From a phage, in the NCBI GenBank assembly GCA_024975835.1, contig GCA_024975835.1_4840.1: a DNA stretch of 64,000 nt; one strand, given 5' to 3'. Position numbers and translations under genes: made by a program. Of this stretch, positions 31,655-36,546 are shown piece after piece (the stretch's first letter is position 1; every line of letters starts with the position of its first letter). The notes under the pieces were generated by a model. That model had not been told where the DNA came from. It saw nothing but the letters and a program-made list of their open reading frames with translations, and did not search any database.

Positions 31655-32314
31655 TTATTTCTTGAATAAACGAAGGAACTTCATCATGTTTTCCATGAAA
31701 GTCGGCTTCTTGACCTTTTGTTTTACCGGAGCGCCCTGATCATTCAGAACACGACTGGCCGGAGGAGTAGGTGGTGTCGGTGCTTTCGTTTCACAGGCCG
31801 GAACGATGTTCACGTCATGATGAGAAGACTCAGCTGTAGTGTTAACAACATTGTTCTCCTGGACGACAGGCTTAACGAGATTCTTTTCATACTCGCGAGC
31901 AATCGCCTGGTACTTCCGATTCTCCGCGTCAAAGTCCATAGAAACGACTTTACGACGGCGGCGCGTCGCGCTCTCATCACCATAGAAATCGTATCCGTTC
32001 TTGACCAGCCAGTGTACAGCTTGGACAAATGAATGGAAGATCATGAACGGCTGGCCATTACCCTCTTCAGCAGCGGTGATGCCGGAGTAGCCCATGAGCA
32101 CAACCTGACCCTTTACGTCGAGGTCAAAAGATGTACATTCACCGTGCTGGTTCAGATCACGCGGAGCCAGCTGGGAATCACGATGGATATAATTCGGCGA
32201 CAAAAACTCATTCAGAGTTCGTTTGTTGCCTTTGTATTCAAACAGGCGAATACAGATGGGAGTCGTCAGTTCATGCCATTCGGCATCGTTGACCCAGATA
32301 GAAACATTACGCAT
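31655..32314 (-). CDS. hypothetical protein
   Basis: 219-aa ORF with GAGGA site; Pro/Thr-rich linker; promoter-like element upstream. Confidence 0.5.
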   Translation of the reverse strand: MRNVSIWVNDAEWHELTTPICIRLFEYKGNKRTLNEFLSPNYIHRDSQLAPRDLNQHGECTSFDLDVKGQVVLMGYSGITAAEEGNGQPFMIFHSFVQAVHWLVKNGYDFYGDESATRRRRKVVSMDFDAENRKYQAIAREYEKNLVKPVVQENNVVNTTAESSHHDVNIVPACETKAPTPPTPPASRVLNDQGAPVKQKVKKPTFMENMMKFLRLFKK

Positions 32315-32354
32315 CGGTGTATCCTCAAATCAATGGATAGGGGTTTAACGGTTA

Positions 32355-32383
32355 AATTTTAAACCATTCTATCTCATTGAACA
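32355..32383 (-). promoter_or_regulatory. sigma70-like promoter (TTGTTC-N17-TAAAAT)
   Basis: Minus-strand -35 TTGTTC (32383..32378) and -10 TAAAAT (32360..32355) upstream of the 32314 gene start. Confidence 0.4.
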
Positions 32384-32413
32384 AATACAGAATGGGAAGG
32401 ATGGACAAAAGAA

Positions 32414-32435
32414 AGCCGGATAAGGATATCCGGCT
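32414..32435 (-). terminator. rho-independent terminator closing the tRNA cluster
   Basis: Perfect 9-bp stem AGCCGGATA/TATCCGGCT followed by TTCTTTTGTCC on the minus strand. Confidence 0.55.
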
Positions 32436-32653
32436 ATACCACATCGATGGGATGGGTTGAAAAGACTACACGCTTGCACTGGTACTGCCTTATGGGAGAG
32501 CGCGTCAGGAGTCGAACCTGAAGTCGTCGACGTAGAGAAAGCTATTTGCATTTCACTATCCTCGCCGCGATTTTCTTAACTTCCTAAACACCCCGATTAC
32601 GAGAGAGTCGACATGCACATCTTCTAACTCTTCAGGAAGTCACGCCCGTAATT

Positions 32654-32742
32654 TGGCGGAAGGTGAAGGATTCGAACCTTCGGGGGCTAAAAGCCCCACT
32701 CGATTAGCAATCGAGTCCCTTAAACCTCTCGGGCAACCTTCC
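32654..32742 (-). tRNA. tRNA-Ser (anticodon GCT)
   Basis: Hand-folded: acceptor GGAAGGT/ACCTTCC, anticodon arm CTCGA-TTGCTAA-TCGAG, long variable arm GGGGC/GCCCC, T-arm GAAGG-TTCGAAT-CCTTC, encoded CCA; 89 nt. Confidence 0.85.
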
Positions 32743-32962
32743 AATTTGGACGGGCTTCGCACCCGATTGAGCATTTGATCTACCGTAGCCCAACTCCCCG
32801 CGCTTCTCAGCGCCGATTGGTTAACTGGCGACCAGTGCCTTCTGGTTCGATCTCCTGGAACTTTACAGGCTTTGCGCCAGACCATTTCTGGAAGTTGGGG
32901 CATCGTTTCCGATGTGGAGTCACCCCATTTTATACACAGCTGGCTGCAACGCTTACTGTGTT

Positions 32963-33046
32963 TGGTGTGAGTGGATGGATTCGAACCACCGCGCTGTTAC
33001 GGGGAGATTTACAGTCTCCTGCATTCGACCGCTCTGCCACACTCAC
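32963..33046 (-). tRNA. tRNA-Tyr (anticodon GTA)
   Basis: Hand-folded: acceptor GTGAGTG/CACTCAC, anticodon arm GGAGA-CTGTAAA-TCTCC, extended variable region, T-loop TTCGAAT, encoded CCA; 84 nt. Confidence 0.75.
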
Positions 33047-33303
33047 ATTTGGTCTGCCGCTGCGTGCTGGGCCACGCTCGAGGACATCGGCCATCCTTCC
33101 TCAGCTAATCCACGCAGCGGTAGATTTGTATCAGAGTGTCCGGTGTAGCAACCCGTGAGGTGCGCACTACTGTAGCCTCTACACTCTGAATTTGGTGGGT
33201 GTTACTATCGTCGTCTTCGGATTCCGTTCGGCTATTGGACAGAGGCTTGGAGCTTGTCGGTCGCGTACTTTATGCCTATTCACTTTCGTTCACACCCATT
33301 GTC

Positions 33304-33379
33304 TGGCGACGATGGCAGGACTTGAACCTGCGACATATGGATTAACAGTCCACCGTTCTACCGACTGAACTACATCGTC
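33304..33379 (-). tRNA. tRNA-Asn (anticodon GTT)
   Basis: Hand-folded canonical cloverleaf: acceptor GACGATG/CATCGTC, D-arm GTTC-AGTCGGTA-GAAC, anticodon loop CTGTTAA, T-arm GCAGG-TTCAAGT-CCTGC, CCA; 76 nt. Confidence 0.85.
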
Positions 33380-33388
33380 TTGCAAATC

Positions 33389-33416
33389 ACTATACCATAT
33401 AAAGTTTATTGAACAA
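33389..33416 (-). promoter_or_regulatory. sigma70-like promoter (TTGTTC-N16-TATAGT, TG-extended) upstream of tRNA-Asn
   Basis: Minus-strand -35 TTGTTC (33416..33411) and TGgTATAGT -10 (33394..33389); predicted start falls within a few nt of the tRNA-Asn 5' end. Confidence 0.45.
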
Positions 33417-33550
33417 ACATTTATTTTACAACAAACTGTATTGGCGGGGTCTGAGGCTTTTCACCTCACCTGCTGGGTTTGGCCGCCCAGCCGTTCTCTA
33501 TGAGGATTCACTGTCCGGACAGCTATCCATTAAACTATCGCCCCTCAATA

Positions 33551-33627
33551 TGGTGATCCTGATTGGGTTTGAACCAATGACCAATGAATTATGAGTTCAC
33601 TGCTCTAACCGACTGAGCTACAGGACC
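33551..33627 (-). tRNA. tRNA-Met or tRNA-Ile2 (anticodon CAT)
   Basis: Hand-folded: acceptor GGTCCTG/CAGGATC, D-arm GCTC-AGTCGGTTA-GAGC, anticodon loop CTCATAA, T-arm ATTGG-TTCAAAC-CCAAT, CCA; Met versus lysidine-Ile not resolvable by eye. Confidence 0.8.
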
Positions 33628-35011
33628 AAATTATTGTGTGACCAACCAAGGACTGTCAACCCTTTATCCCGTTTGTGCATGATCAGTTCATACAGGCCTC
33701 TTTGTGCTGCCTCACGGCATGCGCTTCTGTTGGTCATTGGCTTACACTGTGGCCTCACAACAGGCGTTTATTTTTCCAGGGCTTTCCACTTACAAGTCTT
33801 AACCAGACCGGGATACGGGCTTGTAAGATCGGGTTGGACACAACTTTGAGGACACTGACGACGTATACGAGTCACCCATAACAGATATTCGGATGCCAGT
33901 GTCCTCAAAGTTGCAACCAATGTCGCAACTCGCAGCTTCCATACAGAAGCAACTTGTCCTCTAACGCTCGGACCAAACGAGGCTGGCTGGTTGATTCAGA
34001 GCCGCTGGTTGCTCCAGCAAGCATGGGTTGATAGCCCGGCAACATAGAATCACCCAAAGATGAAGAACATTCATGACTCACATCACACCACGAATGGCCT
34101 GAAAGAGAATCGAACTCTTTAAATGCTCTTCATTTTGTGAACTTGAGAATACTACGCCTGTCTCGGGTTTCCCCTTAGTTCGGCCTCCCAGTCCTCGCCG
34201 CGCCGGGTAGCTAACCCTGATGGCTCGTCTGCTACTGAGTTCTTCTTGGTGCCCACCAGTGTCCGGAATGTGTAGGCATCGCAATCTGCAAGGCATGGTC
34301 TATTTCACCCAATGCTCTCTCAAGTTCACAAATCGAAGTGCCCTGACTCAACAGTATGGCCCAATATGCTGTTATCGTCCACCGGATTGGCCGCCCAATT
34401 TGTAGATCAACCTTTGGGTTTAAGATAAATTGTCAAGGCACTTCGATTTGTGTGCCCTTCACCTGCCAGGGATCAGGGCTGATGGCAAGACTTCGCTCAC
34501 ATCTTTCAAGATACTCGTGAGAATATCCTCAAAGATGTGGAGCCGTTTTAGGGAGTCGAACCCAAATGCTTGGCCAGCGCTGACCTTACATCCCATCTGA
34601 CTTAGGCAACCCACCTCTGCTTACTCAGGAGCTTATCCCCTTTGGACAGTCAGATATAACGGCATTGTCGACGGGAGCTTATTAATCACACCCTCCCGTC
34701 TATTTTAGTGCGCCGAATTTGGTGATGAGGAATCGGAAGACCTCACTGACTTATAGGCTGTTACGCCGCCATCAGAACTTCGGAATCATTAGCAGTTATT
34801 TGCTTGGTCAGTTTCTAAAAACCCGCAAAGTCACTCACAACGAAAACGAAAACCTGTTTGAGCACAAGACGCCATGTCCTGGGTTCACATCGAAGTGTTT
34901 GTCTAATGCCCAAACAGCTTTTCGTTCAGTGGGTTAACTATACTTTGTAACCCGTTATTGACAAAACCTTAAATTAAGTTGCGGTGTACTCAAGACCACC
35001 GCACTATTAAT

Positions 35012-35326
35012 CTACTTCAGCCAGCCCATGACTGCTTTGATGGTGTTGTCTGAATTAACTTCCACAGACTCAACCCAAACAGCCTGACACGAGGCCGAGA
35101 AATTATACAGGGCATCGTAGTTCTCAAACTTCTTGTCCACCAGAGCGATGGCACGCTTCCGTCCTGAGATTTCTACCTTGGTTGAGTCTTCAGATTTCAC
35201 CAGAGTGCATGAAACCCCATCCCAACCCAGTTGCTTCTGTAAATTCTCTAAATTGATCATAACTACCTCTTTGTCGATATTTGTTGGACATTTCCATTCG
35301 CGGACTATGTCAACACCCACCAACAT
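35012..35326 (-). CDS. hypothetical protein
   Basis: 104-aa ORF. Confidence 0.4.
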   Translation of the reverse strand: MLVGVDIVREWKCPTNIDKEVVMINLENLQKQLGWDGVSCTLVKSEDSTKVEISGRKRAIALVDKKFENYDALYNFSASCQAVWVESVEVNSDNTIKAVMGWLK

Positions 35327-35772
35327 TTTGCCGGAACTTACGCATCCGGCCTCGCCTGTTGGTGCTCCTTCGAATCCGGGAAGATCAGTAGGAACTATGA
35401 ATCAAGTTAATTCGACCAACAGGAACCTTGTTGCCCTTTGACGCAACATTATGAACCCTCTATGGAAGACTCATAATGTTGTCGGCGTGATGGAGATTAG
35501 CGCCCCCGACCTCCCCTTGTGTTGGTGTCGACTTGCCAACGGGGTGCTCTCTATTTCTGAGCTAATCACGCTGCAACAGGGAGTTTCGTTCTCCGACGGT
35601 CAAGTGCGTCCACTGACACCATGCAAGGTGGATATTGACTTATGAAGCCGGAGTCCTCGTCCTAGGACTGTGCTTGGCCTCAGCCTTTACACCGCTGGTC
35701 GCCCGACTCTTTACACCATAAAATTTACTATACTACAGCCAAGCTAATTTGAAAAGTCCTCTCCTCTTTGTG

Positions 35773-35919
35773 CTACACTGCCCACAGCAGTGCGGACGAA
35801 CCTTCACACAAAACCGGATGCGCCGAAGTGGGCGACTGTTTACCGGACTGATCGGGTAGACCCAGGAGAGAGCAGGTAATCCCGATCAGGAGGATGAGGA
35901 GTAACATCATGTAAAACAT
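35773..35919 (-). CDS. small membrane protein (48 aa; below ORF-track cutoff)
   Basis: ATG at 35919 preceded by GGAAGGGAGGG; MFYMMLLLILLIGITCSLLGL hydrophobic segment. Confidence 0.35.
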   Translation of the reverse strand: MFYMMLLLILLIGITCSLLGLPDQSGKQSPTSAHPVLCEGSSALLWAV

Positions 35920-35976
35920 AGTGTTCCCTCCCTTCCATGCAACTAACTTTACTGCAATTATTTATTGAATAAAGCG

Positions 35977-36546
35977 TTATTTTAACACTTCTAACTTCAC
36001 AATACGACGCAGAAGGTAAACATATTCGCCAGCAGCTTCATGCGTCATATAATGGGTAGAAGGTGTGGAATGAGTGTTCTGGGTTTCTTTTAATCCAACG
36101 CGTTCAGCCCAACCATTAATAGAGTTCCCATAGAAACCGATAATCGCGCCAAAATAAATACGCCCGCTTTCTGGCTCTAAAACGTAGTTGACAGTGAAGC
36201 AAATGTCAGAACGAATAGACTCCAGTTTCATACCAACACGACCTTCAGAGAATTCGTTACGAACATATAAATGACGGAAGCGATCGCGCCGTGCTTGTGA
36301 TGATTCTTCCAATTCTTGTCGAAGTGAAGAAGTTATGTCAATATTAAATGAAAATGTTGGATTTCGTAAATCAGAACGGGCCAACTCTAACGCAGATTCA
36401 ATAACGCGACGGAAATTGATACTTTTACCTGTCAGGCGTTTCACTTCATCGGTGATTTTTTCAAAAGGGATTTTCGTGGCGCGTTCCCCTTCGTATTTTG
36501 CTAACAAAGGAACAATGTGTTTCATGATTGCTGTGTTAATGTGCAT
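35977..36546 (-). CDS. hypothetical protein (AT-rich orphan)
   Basis: 189-aa ORF in an AT-rich patch between the tRNA region and baseplate genes; no family recognised. Confidence 0.45.
   Translation of the reverse strand: MHINTAIMKHIVPLLAKYEGERATKIPFEKITDEVKRLTGKSINFRRVIESALELARSDLRNPTFSFNIDITSSLRQELEESSQARRDRFRHLYVRNEFSEGRVGMKLESIRSDICFTVNYVLEPESGRIYFGAIIGFYGNSINGWAERVGLKETQNTHSTPSTHYMTHEAAGEYVYLLRRIVKLEVLK

Follow-up and report, generated by a model that had tools for sequence, protein, structure and literature searches.

A proposed transfer-messenger RNA-like tag template without a recognizable tRNA-like half in the RNA-gene tract of a Vi1-like phage and in unrelated phage families

Transfer-messenger RNA (tmRNA) is viewed as one molecule, in which the tRNA and mRNA halves are necessarily linked physically. 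In Escherichia coli the tmRNA tag is ANDENYALAA, preceded by AUAGUC-GCA, and the tag frame is set by AUA at positions -6 to -4, the equivalent of U85/A86. Phage T4 produces two stable RNAs of 120-140 nt, species 1 and 2 (rnaC and rnaD), which are encoded amid the phage tRNA genes and co-processed with them. In the tmRNA database papers, phage tmRNAs are listed only from Bacillus phage G and mycobacteriophages, with a further 79 phage entries left unspecified, and the RNA of mycobacteriophage DS6A, which consists of the tRNA-like domain only, was reported to inhibit tmRNA (PMC4131195, PMC11915505). Here we analyzed a gene-free stretch of ~2.7 kb (32315-35011) in 64,000 nt of phage DNA (contig GCA_024975835.1_4840.1; the whole of this DNA is called the window). 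Besides four tRNA genes, the stretch holds a tmRNA-like, candidate tag-template RNA at 34670-34853 on the minus strand (-), called the core below. The core is a tmRNA-derived RNA with only the mRNA-like half, and it is common to unrelated phage families. It is the most informative element of the tract and was missed by an earlier note on this DNA, which a model had made from the letters alone; the observations of that note were partly confirmed and its interpretation was partly supported. Every neighboring gene and every RNA feature is encoded on the minus strand, and "upstream" therefore denotes higher window coordinates.

The source phage belongs to the Ackermannviridae and is Vi1-like and Kuttervirus-like. 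In a sensitive BLAST search with 33628-35011, ~170 nt (34679-34847) matched phages unrelated to this family, namely the lambdoid phage HK633, the N4-like phages EC1-UPM and PGN829.1, and T1-like Drexlerviridae. The cross-family conservation extends from the motif GUUUUCG to just past the second of two pseudoknots (PKb), the core being 70-99% conserved in four unrelated phage families. In order, the core is composed of GUUUUCG repeats, GACUUUGCGGG, UUUAGAAAC, the tag open reading frame (ORF), a hairpin resembling helix 5 of tmRNA, and the two pseudoknots.

The tag frame is located at 34761-34793 (-) and reads GCU AAU GAU UCC GAA GUU CUG AUG GCG GCG UAA, corresponding to the 10 codons of ANDSEVLMAA and a stop. 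As in tmRNA, the frame opens with a GCN resume codon, has no start codon, and ends in a hydrophobic, Ala-rich C terminus and a stop. The resume codon GCU is preceded by AUAACU at 34794-34799 (-). In 90 distinct copies of the core, AUAA[A/C]U at this place was near-invariant, with AUA at -6 to -4. The 10-codon frame AN[DE]x..L[MA][AV]A was retained in 124 of 129 copies. The most common tags were ANDDVVLMAA (35 copies), ANEEMYLAVA (20), ANDDLMLMAA (18), and ANDEQFLAVA (18), followed by ANDNTFLAVA (10), ANDDQFLAVA (7), and the window version ANDSEVLMAA (6). At the nucleotide level the 90 distinct copies contained 27 versions of the tag. Each of the 27 was open in frame 0 for 10 codons plus stop, and the stop occupied the same column in all of them, be it TAA, TAG, or TGA, whereas the other two frames were open in only 2 and 5 versions. 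For frame 0, a pN/pS value of 0.49 was determined, compared with 1.42 and 0.90 for the other frames, and up to seven nucleotide versions encoded the same peptide. The tag is under codon-level constraint.

Coding constraint would also be expected if the frame were translated conventionally as a micro-ORF, for example a leader peptide or an attenuator. However, in-frame ATG, GTG, and TTG starts and Shine-Dalgarno sequences are absent from all copies; the first codon is GCA or GCU, and an in-frame stop is found a few codons upstream. Moreover, the peptide, the AUA element, the hairpin, and the pseudoknots all match tmRNA. A micro-ORF is therefore considered extremely improbable. As a separate observation, the tag that most resembles the host tag, ANDNYALAAA ending at TGA, belongs to the most divergent core copy, on the IMG/VR contig 3300014912_000001, and an ORF resembling Phd/YefM-type antitoxins lies directly downstream of this copy.

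The core structure was tested on an alignment (A1) of the 90 distinct copies, comprising six helices with 24 pairs and 2148 cells. Helices 1 and 2 form a two-part, helix-5-like hairpin at 34746-34775 (-), with the stop codon in its loop. Two of its pairs alternate between copies: pair 93/116 is G-C in 47 and A-U in 42, and pair 98/109 is G-C in 41 and A-U in 23. Helices 3 and 4 belong to the first pseudoknot, PKa (34713-34745, -), in which the loop CCGA of the hairpin UGAGG/CCUCA pairs with a downstream UCGG. Compensatory changes were found in three stem pairs and two loop-to-downstream pairs of PKa, with >99% of the cells paired; in other copies the loop pairing is replaced by CCAG/CUGG or CCAA/UUGG. 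Helices 5 and 6 form PKb (34670-34710, -), an H-type pseudoknot of CACU/GGUG and GACGGGAG/CUCCCGUC, the latter being the window version of a second stem that is GGCCC/GGGC across the alignment. All four pairs of this second stem and one pair of the first stem (C-G to G-C) showed compensatory changes, and the 12-nt loop UGUGAUUAAUAA (34679-34690) was invariant in the alignment.

Covariation across related phages had been proposed as a check in the earlier note. Standard pairs were formed by 96.9% of the cells, compared with 30-47% when the partners were slid by 1-3 columns, and compensatory changes were present in 12 of the 24 pairs (238 cells). The covariation score was 0.300 for the proposed structure and 0.05-0.10 for the slid controls; none of 500 shuffles reached the observed value. 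Covariation thus supports the secondary structure of the core, both pseudoknots included. A helix 5 that encloses the stop codon and is followed by pseudoknots is the layout of tmRNA downstream of the tag. Upstream of the tag, GUUUUCG, GACUUUGCGG, and UUUAGAAAC are nearly invariant; a UGCG/CGCA pairing proposed there by RNAalifold is invariant too.

A 211-nt core query matched 427 phage records, 251 of them with at least 80% coverage, among Ackermannviridae and lambdoid, T1-like, and N4-like phages. Carriers include HK633, Det7, Vi01, the T1-like phages Bas77 and Bas80 of the BASEL collection, and the N4-like phages St11Ph5 and EC1-UPM. Of 5426 complete E. coli genomes, 143 have the core in a prophage, where it lies unannotated in a gap of ~1 kb between the genes for antiterminator Q and holin; the host ssrA was not matched by the query in these 5426 genomes. 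The HK633 copy occupies the same Q-holin position, downstream of pR'/qut, and prophages of Shiga toxin-producing E. coli carry the core between Q and the lysis genes. A motif scan of IMG/VR detected at least 120 contigs with the core motif. When species-representative genomes were scanned for the pattern, 23 matches were obtained, most of them by chance; six were real, all in Enterobacterales prophages. The core is never annotated in the records that carry it. In the open-access literature searched, no paper was found with the tag strings or with a phage tmRNA reduced to the mRNA half, and an earlier description elsewhere is possible.

The tract is best explained as an RNA-gene array whose distinctive product is a tag-template RNA released by processing; we put the probability of this explanation at about 55%. 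The polycistronic array would be transcribed leftward on the minus strand from sigma-70-like promoters and would end at a terminator at 32406-32435. The predicted products are the four tRNAs, two or more oversized RNAs of tRNA-like type (X1, X2), a tRNA-like hairpin that is closed and permuted, and a tmRNA-derived RNA of ~190-260 nt with the AUA element, the GCN resume codon, the tag, helix 5, and the two pseudoknots. Processing by RNase P, RNase Z, or RNase III, or self-cleavage, would be punctuated by the long stems, the tRNA-like units, and a hammerhead-like ribozyme that some relatives contain. The released core RNA would begin near GUUUUCG and terminate just past the second pseudoknot. 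During infection this RNA may then act as an alternative tag template in SmpB-dependent trans-translation, so that ...ANDSEVLMAA (ANDDVVLMAA, ANEEMYLAVA, or others elsewhere) would be appended in place of the host tag. We infer this SmpB-type reading of the tag because of the coding constraint and the preserved resume context. Because the core has no tRNA-like domain, an alanine-charged entry module would have to come from elsewhere, either from host tmRNA-SmpB or from a phage tRNA-like RNA, which is the weakest part of the model.

Several features of the surrounding sequence suggest how the core could be released. Module D (34854-34917, -), directly upstream of the core, is a stem of 11-12 bp (CUGUUUGGGCA/UGCUCAAACAG) with a short insert. 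It occupies the slot of "module 1" (AAGRGCAUU...AGUGCUCUU) of other phages, and in the Rfam alignment it corresponds to the closing helix of the tRNA-like domain in permuted tmRNA. Most phages have conserved stems on both sides of the core, (C)AACAGG-U-AAGRGCAUU ... AGUGCYCUU-UCC-GUUG, which enclose variable inserts of 30-110 nt; many of these inserts have a canonical T-arm beside the 3' strand, in tRNA-like geometry. The E. coli CFSAN018748 prophage carries a type I hammerhead-like insert directly after the core in its Q-holin region (2672-2718 of the extract), within the conserved stem. The insert is also present in a second contig (L042). Its catalytic core is perfect (CUGACGAG...CGAAAC...GUC, three stems), and its Rfam score of 24.7 bits (E = 0.002) does not reach the threshold of 34. 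No hammerhead is present in the window. In five loci without the upstream module, a sigma-70-like promoter is positioned for a start a few nucleotides before GUUUUCG. Because the inserts are variable, tRNA-like, or hammerhead-like, the conservation ends at GUUUUCG and PKb, and promoters precede GUUUUCG, the inserts appear to be interchangeable processing cassettes, and the mature RNA would be essentially the core.

The long stems described in the earlier note were confirmed against shuffled sequences, with z = -7.65 for 33839-33915, -7.16 for 34498-34539, -3.71 for 34061-34132, and -3.99 for module D. The stem at 33839-33915 (-) is a perfect duplex of 20 bp with a 37-nt insert and is a candidate processing stem; its sequence resembles the GAGGACA.../...UGUCCUC stems of relatives. 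The stem at 34498-34539 (-) is "empty" (9 + 9 bp), and three relatives (L062, L123, and L131) have the same stem with a T-arm-containing insert of ~60 nt at its tip. Both are "empty" or short-insert versions of stems that hold T-arm inserts in relatives. As near-perfect duplexes of 18-20 bp, they are plausible RNase III sites.

Three tRNA-like 3' halves without matching 5' halves had also been reported. T-arm motifs are indeed present at 32505-32521, 34103-34119, and 34549-34565, but for two of the three the 5' halves are not missing. The 5' acceptor strands of X1 and X2 lie 120-150 nt upstream, with support from unit boundaries or compensatory changes, and the third T-arm pairs with a strand just downstream to give a closed hairpin. 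X1 (34538-34663, -; 126 nt) starts 6 nt past PKb and extends from its 5' acceptor strand GCCGUUA at 34663 through the T-arm UUGGG-UUCGACU-CCCUA to AAACGGC-U-CCA. Its boundaries are identical in four different upstream contexts among relatives. A C-G pair of its arm 2 is replaced by U-A in two loci (L120 and L128), and in one phage the discriminator is A instead of U, with CCA kept. X2 (32493-32647, -; 155 nt) starts 6 nt past tRNA-Ser and extends from GGGCGUG at 32647 through the T-arm UCAGG-UUCGACU-CCUGA to CGCGCUC-U-CCCA. Compared with Det7-type relatives, its acceptor pair 4:69 changes from C-G to U-A and a T-stem pair from A-U to G-C. The minimum free energy (MFE) structure of X1 is a four-way, cloverleaf-like fold, and that of X2 closes the acceptor stem beside the T-arm. 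As discrete units with acceptor, T-arm, and a CCA-type end, U-CCA with one compensatory pair in X1 and U-CCCA with two in X2, both have the features of tRNA-like stable RNAs. Neither contains G3:U70.

Two further cassettes are tentative. X3 (33442-33544, -; 103 nt), GGGG...CCCC-G-CCA, has three hairpins and no canonical T-loop; the ends of BLAST segments in relatives coincide with its ends, and its MFE structure is cloverleaf-like with a z of only -1.7. X4 is located at 33193-33297 (-). Neither is placed more firmly because "closing stem + NCCA" as a cassette detector did not exceed expectation (33 found, 22.7 +/- 5.7 in shuffles). The hexamer GACAAU precedes the 5' ends of both X1 (34664-34669, -) and X4 (33298-33303, -) and may be a shared leader for their 5' processing. 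Module B (34061-34132, -) consists of the stem GAAGAGCAU/AUGUUCUUC around the T-arm at 34103-34119 and an acceptor-like hairpin capped by UUCG. Its acceptor-like hairpin, read from the sequence, pairs G1-C72, G2-C71, and U3.G70; A73 comes next, and CCA is absent. Its topology is that of a closed, permuted tRNA-like domain that is unopened, and the stem holds a different insert in close relatives. No match to RF00005 was obtained at E <= 10 for X1, X2, X3, or module B, which are thus not canonical tRNAs. The hairpin UGCGGUG...CACCGCA at 34980-35003 (-) is what remains of the acceptor stem of a tRNA-like unit; relatives have the complete unit, and in one of them (L059) the two strands are 120 nt apart with a canonical T-arm between them. 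The earlier suggestion of additional non-canonical tRNAs, processed small RNAs, and remnants fits X1, X2, the permuted hairpin, and this remnant; it left out the tmRNA-like core.

Related units were noticed in other phages. EP75 has a 67-nt unit annotated as "tRNA-Ala" just upstream of the counterpart of promoter P1 (2677-2743 of the extract), for which ARAGORN makes no call. With an acceptor GGUGAGG/CCUCGCC (U3.G70, A73), a T-arm, and no anticodon arm, it resembles a bare tRNA-like domain; its counterpart in the window is merely the 7-bp hairpin at 34980-35003. Det7 (1414-1502 of the extract) and locus L007 (3910-3998) have a tRNA-like gene beside tRNA-Ser with normal acceptor, D-arm, and T-arm and a 22-nt "anticodon loop," CAGG-AGAGCUUCGGAAGAACAAGGUG-CCUG. 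This unit is absent from the window, and lambdoid phages have the same loop motif in a tRNA-like module, for example downstream of the core in HK633.

A number of results weigh against a tag-template RNA released from an array. In Rfam, tmRNA_permuted matched the window core with 22.3 bits (E = 0.014), and the threshold is 47. The families tmRNA_permuted, alpha_tmRNA, and beta_tmRNA gave repeated sub-threshold matches on the tag region in five different phages, which speak for a relationship to tmRNA; the best tmRNA score in other phages was 33.7 bits (L005), with curated thresholds of 47-84 bits. Every Rfam match to tmRNA and to the hammerhead was thus below the gathering score, and ARAGORN called no tmRNA in the 87 extracts from the window and 86 relatives. 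The weak z values of the MFE structures of X1 (-1.35) and X2 (-0.96) point in the same direction, as does the finding that a closing stem plus CCA alone is no rarer than chance. Processing sites and array products are, moreover, predictions from the sequence.

The most serious objection concerns the tRNA-like domain. Scans were performed for an acceptor 5' strand for each T-arm and for a T-arm with acceptor and CCA within ~1 kb of every core copy. In these scans of the core loci, no conserved tRNA-like domain with G3:U70, A73, and CCA was detected alongside the core, and some copies, such as that of phage SG01, have no T-arm anywhere in the 380-nt intergenic region. The acceptor stems that are present are without alanine identity, with C3-G70 in X1, G3-C70 in X2, and U3.G70 in module B. 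We know of no mechanism by which a tag template that is not linked to a tRNA-like domain is loaded. Because this defining domain is missing, the core is not classed as a tmRNA. A scan for alanine-type stems with the pattern GGGGNNN...NNNCUCC-A returned only E. coli ssrA, the positive control, and phage fGh-Ecl02, whose GGGGCUG/CGGCUCC stem is the sole case among the loci, lies at the recombination junction of two insert types, and is probably a coincidence.

Candidate partners within the window were rejected. A one-piece tmRNA that ends with the T-arm at 34549-34565 would need a 5' acceptor strand upstream of the tag; none was found there, and this T-arm is part of the self-contained unit X1. 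An intermolecular P2-like helix of UGACUUUGCG (34824-34833) with UGUAAGGUCA of X1 was dismissed, since a change in the X1 strand is compensated within X1 in relatives; no consistent P2-like partner of the core was found in other phage families. The gene order of permuted tmRNA (T-arm, 3' acceptor, CCA, spacer, 5' acceptor, upstream of the tag) is not observed at the core: module D has neither T-arm nor CCA, and module B, with U3.G70, has the right topology but lies 550 nt downstream and has no CCA.

Because no tRNA-like domain is linked to the core, either a further partner is needed or the RNA is an interfering mimic instead. As such a decoy or antagonist, the core RNA would imitate the mRNA-like and pseudoknot portion of tmRNA and titrate the factors that bind there (ribosomal protein S1, RNase R, and possibly SmpB or the 30S binding site), and it would damp trans-translation or nonstop-mRNA decay of the host during infection. 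A non-translated mimic fits the absent tRNA-like domain, the invariant loop UGUGAUUAAUAA may be a binding site, and the inhibitory DS6A RNA provides a precedent (PMC4131195, PMC11915505). A decoy does not need, however, an open 10-codon frame with synonymous variation, variable stops, and a pN/pS of 0.49, nor does it need the preserved AUA-N3-GCN resume context. We regard the decoy as rather unlikely.

The description of the tract as ~2.7 kb of non-coding DNA with four tRNAs, without credible ORFs and yet not AT-rich, was borne out. ARAGORN and Rfam agreed on exactly four tRNAs, all on the minus strand: tRNA-Ser (GCT) at 32654-32742, tRNA-Tyr (GTA) at 32963-33046, tRNA-Asn (GTT) at 33304-33379, and a tRNA with a CAT anticodon (Met, or Ile if lysidine-modified) at 33551-33627, which is annotated as tRNA-Ile in fGh-Ecl02. 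They scored 55-77 bits against RF00005, above the threshold and with anticodons assigned, tRNA-Asn reaching 77 bits. Apart from tRNA and tmRNA-related families, Rfam at E <= 10 returned only chance microRNA-like matches to hairpins, and no GOLLD, ROOL, group I intron, or small RNA in the tract. Coding potential was rejected for the seven ORFs of 50-127 amino acids in the tract, none of which matched a PHROG family, whereas the left flanking gene (31655-32314, -) did (phrog_4050, 5e-98). The GC content of 45-52% equals that of the flanking coding DNA.

The promoters proposed in the earlier note did not exceed chance in number (5 found, 5.1 expected), but one of them is conserved. This sigma-70-like site P1 (TTGTCA-16-TATAGT; 34937-34964, -), with a predicted +1 near 34930, was found by scan, and its sequence block is kept in Kuttervirus and Klebsiella relatives. 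A second promoter-like site (TTGACA-18-AATAAT; 33630-33659, -), with 11 of 12 matches, lies directly upstream of tRNA-Met. The scan also identified an intrinsic terminator-like hairpin with a U-run at 32406-32435 (-), which closes the RNA array and is conserved in relatives.

A replication origin had been suggested as well. Stems that act as cruciforms or protein-binding repeats in an origin or another DNA-level element would agree with the long inverted repeats and with a local change in GC skew between ~32500 and ~36000. However, iterons, tandem repeats, and an AT-rich unwinding stretch are all absent, and the conserved features (tRNAs, tag frame, pseudoknots, G.U pairs) are strand-specific and RNA-like. 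In lambdoid prophages the same core is located in the late-operon leader, a non-origin site, and the change in skew matches the position of the minus-strand RNA-gene block. An origin is accordingly a most improbable reading. The plus-strand GC skew itself flips sign at both ends of 32500-36000, which covers the RNA array and its upstream neighbors.

The closest relative of the source phage is Enterobacter phage fGh-Ecl02 (95% identity over 92% of the query), and at megablast level the tract was matched by 319 phage records. With 300-400 Ackermannviridae records retaining it, the tract is not the unconserved spacer that would have spoken against the earlier note. It is mosaic, with blocks present or absent between close relatives. 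This mosaicism, together with the remnants (the hairpin at 34980-35003, the "empty" stem at 34498-34539, degenerate T-loops, and the pseudo-tRNA of Det7), is what one would expect if the tract were mostly debris, i.e. functionless decayed tRNA and tmRNA genes and recombination scars. Against debris stand the conservation of the core in four unrelated families with compensatory changes and codon constraint, the exact boundaries of X1 across contexts, and the compensatory changes in X2, so that we consider it improbable. Debris, origin, and micro-ORF are each contradicted by specific results.

Some observations concern the neighborhood of the array. The hairpin-forming segment 33125-33198 (-) in the spacer between tRNA-Asn and tRNA-Tyr has 83-84% identity to two viral contigs from outside the Ackermannviridae (L093 and L098), which also carry the tmRNA-like core, and is thus a second module common to different phage families. 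The right flanking gene, a 104-amino acid ORF (35012-35326, -) with a good ribosome-binding site and no PHROG family, is absent from fGh-Ecl02 and, given this absence, may be a recent insertion. Upstream of it, 35330-35480 is conserved with the non-coding DNA upstream of the EP75 tRNA-like unit, and the structured, gene-poor region may therefore extend past the right-hand boundary of the tract. Det7 annotates a pseudo-tRNA in the corresponding region. In the homologous tract of Klebsiella phage phi1_146041 (2463-6661 of the extract), the annotation comprises a 63-amino acid "RNA ligase" and 17 short genes labeled "hypothetical protein," of which many lie on the wrong strand; these are probably over-calls.

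On the main explanation, that of an RNA-gene array with a processed tag template, a further-reaching proposal can be built. A mobile mRNA half of tmRNA in at least four enterobacterial phage families would reprogram host trans-translation in trans, after being cut out by interchangeable cassettes. We offer this proposal tentatively, with the odds against it. If it is true, an alanyl tRNA-like domain of host or phage would enter the stalled ribosome with SmpB while the phage RNA supplies the template, and rescued proteins would bear a phage tag with an LMAA or LAVA ending and a different proteolytic fate. A widespread, conserved, and evidently selected phage RNA with the mRNA half alone implies either an unrecognized tRNA-like partner or a new viral way to hijack or block ribosome rescue, and the occurrence of the element in tractable phages makes the question directly testable. 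On the practical side, tmRNA finders miss the core family, and spurious "hypothetical protein" genes have been called over the region in hundreds of phage genomes, as in phi1_146041. The oversized tRNA-like RNAs and stem-insert modules are new material for studies of RNA processing in phage tRNA clusters.

Compared with standard tmRNA (SsrA, RF00023), the core shares the GCN resume codon with AUA at -6 to -4, the 10-residue AND....AA tag of the gammaproteobacterial type followed by a stop, the stop within the loop of a helix-5-like hairpin, and H-type pseudoknots after the tag. In contrast, its ends form no acceptor stem, G3:U70 and ACCA are absent, and no T-arm is conserved with it. The core has just two post-tag pseudoknots and no clear PK1, it is ~180 nt long compared with ~360 nt for tmRNA, and its tag ends in LMAA or LAVA rather than ALAA. 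It is also phage-borne and has no BLAST match to host ssrA. The best Rfam similarity (E = 0.004-0.1) is to the two-piece, permuted tmRNAs of alpha- and beta-proteobacteria and cyanobacteria (RF01849, RF01850, RF04321). As in permuted genes, where this slot holds the tRNA-like domain, the tag region is immediately preceded by a stem with an insert, and processing from a longer precursor is implied. Unlike in these genes, the insert is variable, usually has no T-arm, acceptor, or CCA, and is dispensable, as copies that begin at a promoter immediately ahead of GUUUUCG indicate.

The prophage insert after the core is a candidate type I hammerhead (RF00163), with the CUGANGA...GAAA...UH elements and three stems; it scores below the Rfam threshold, and its cleavage is putative. 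Other phages have a tRNA-like unit in the same slot. X1 and X2 are, by description, objects comparable to species 1 and 2 of T4 in size and in their place in a tRNA cluster, the analogy drawn in the earlier note; what sets X1 and X2 apart is that the acceptor stem, the T-arm, and the NCCA end are explicit. Like the RNAs of DS6A, other mycobacteriophages, and phage G, the core is a phage-encoded derivative of the trans-translation RNA, and like that of DS6A it is one half of a tmRNA. The tmRNAs of the other mycobacteriophages and of phage G are complete and detectable by ARAGORN, whereas DS6A keeps the tRNA-like half and the core the mRNA-like half. We rate the mRNA-half-only RNA as a variant of tmRNA inside a familiar type of locus, the phage tRNA cluster with extra stable RNAs.

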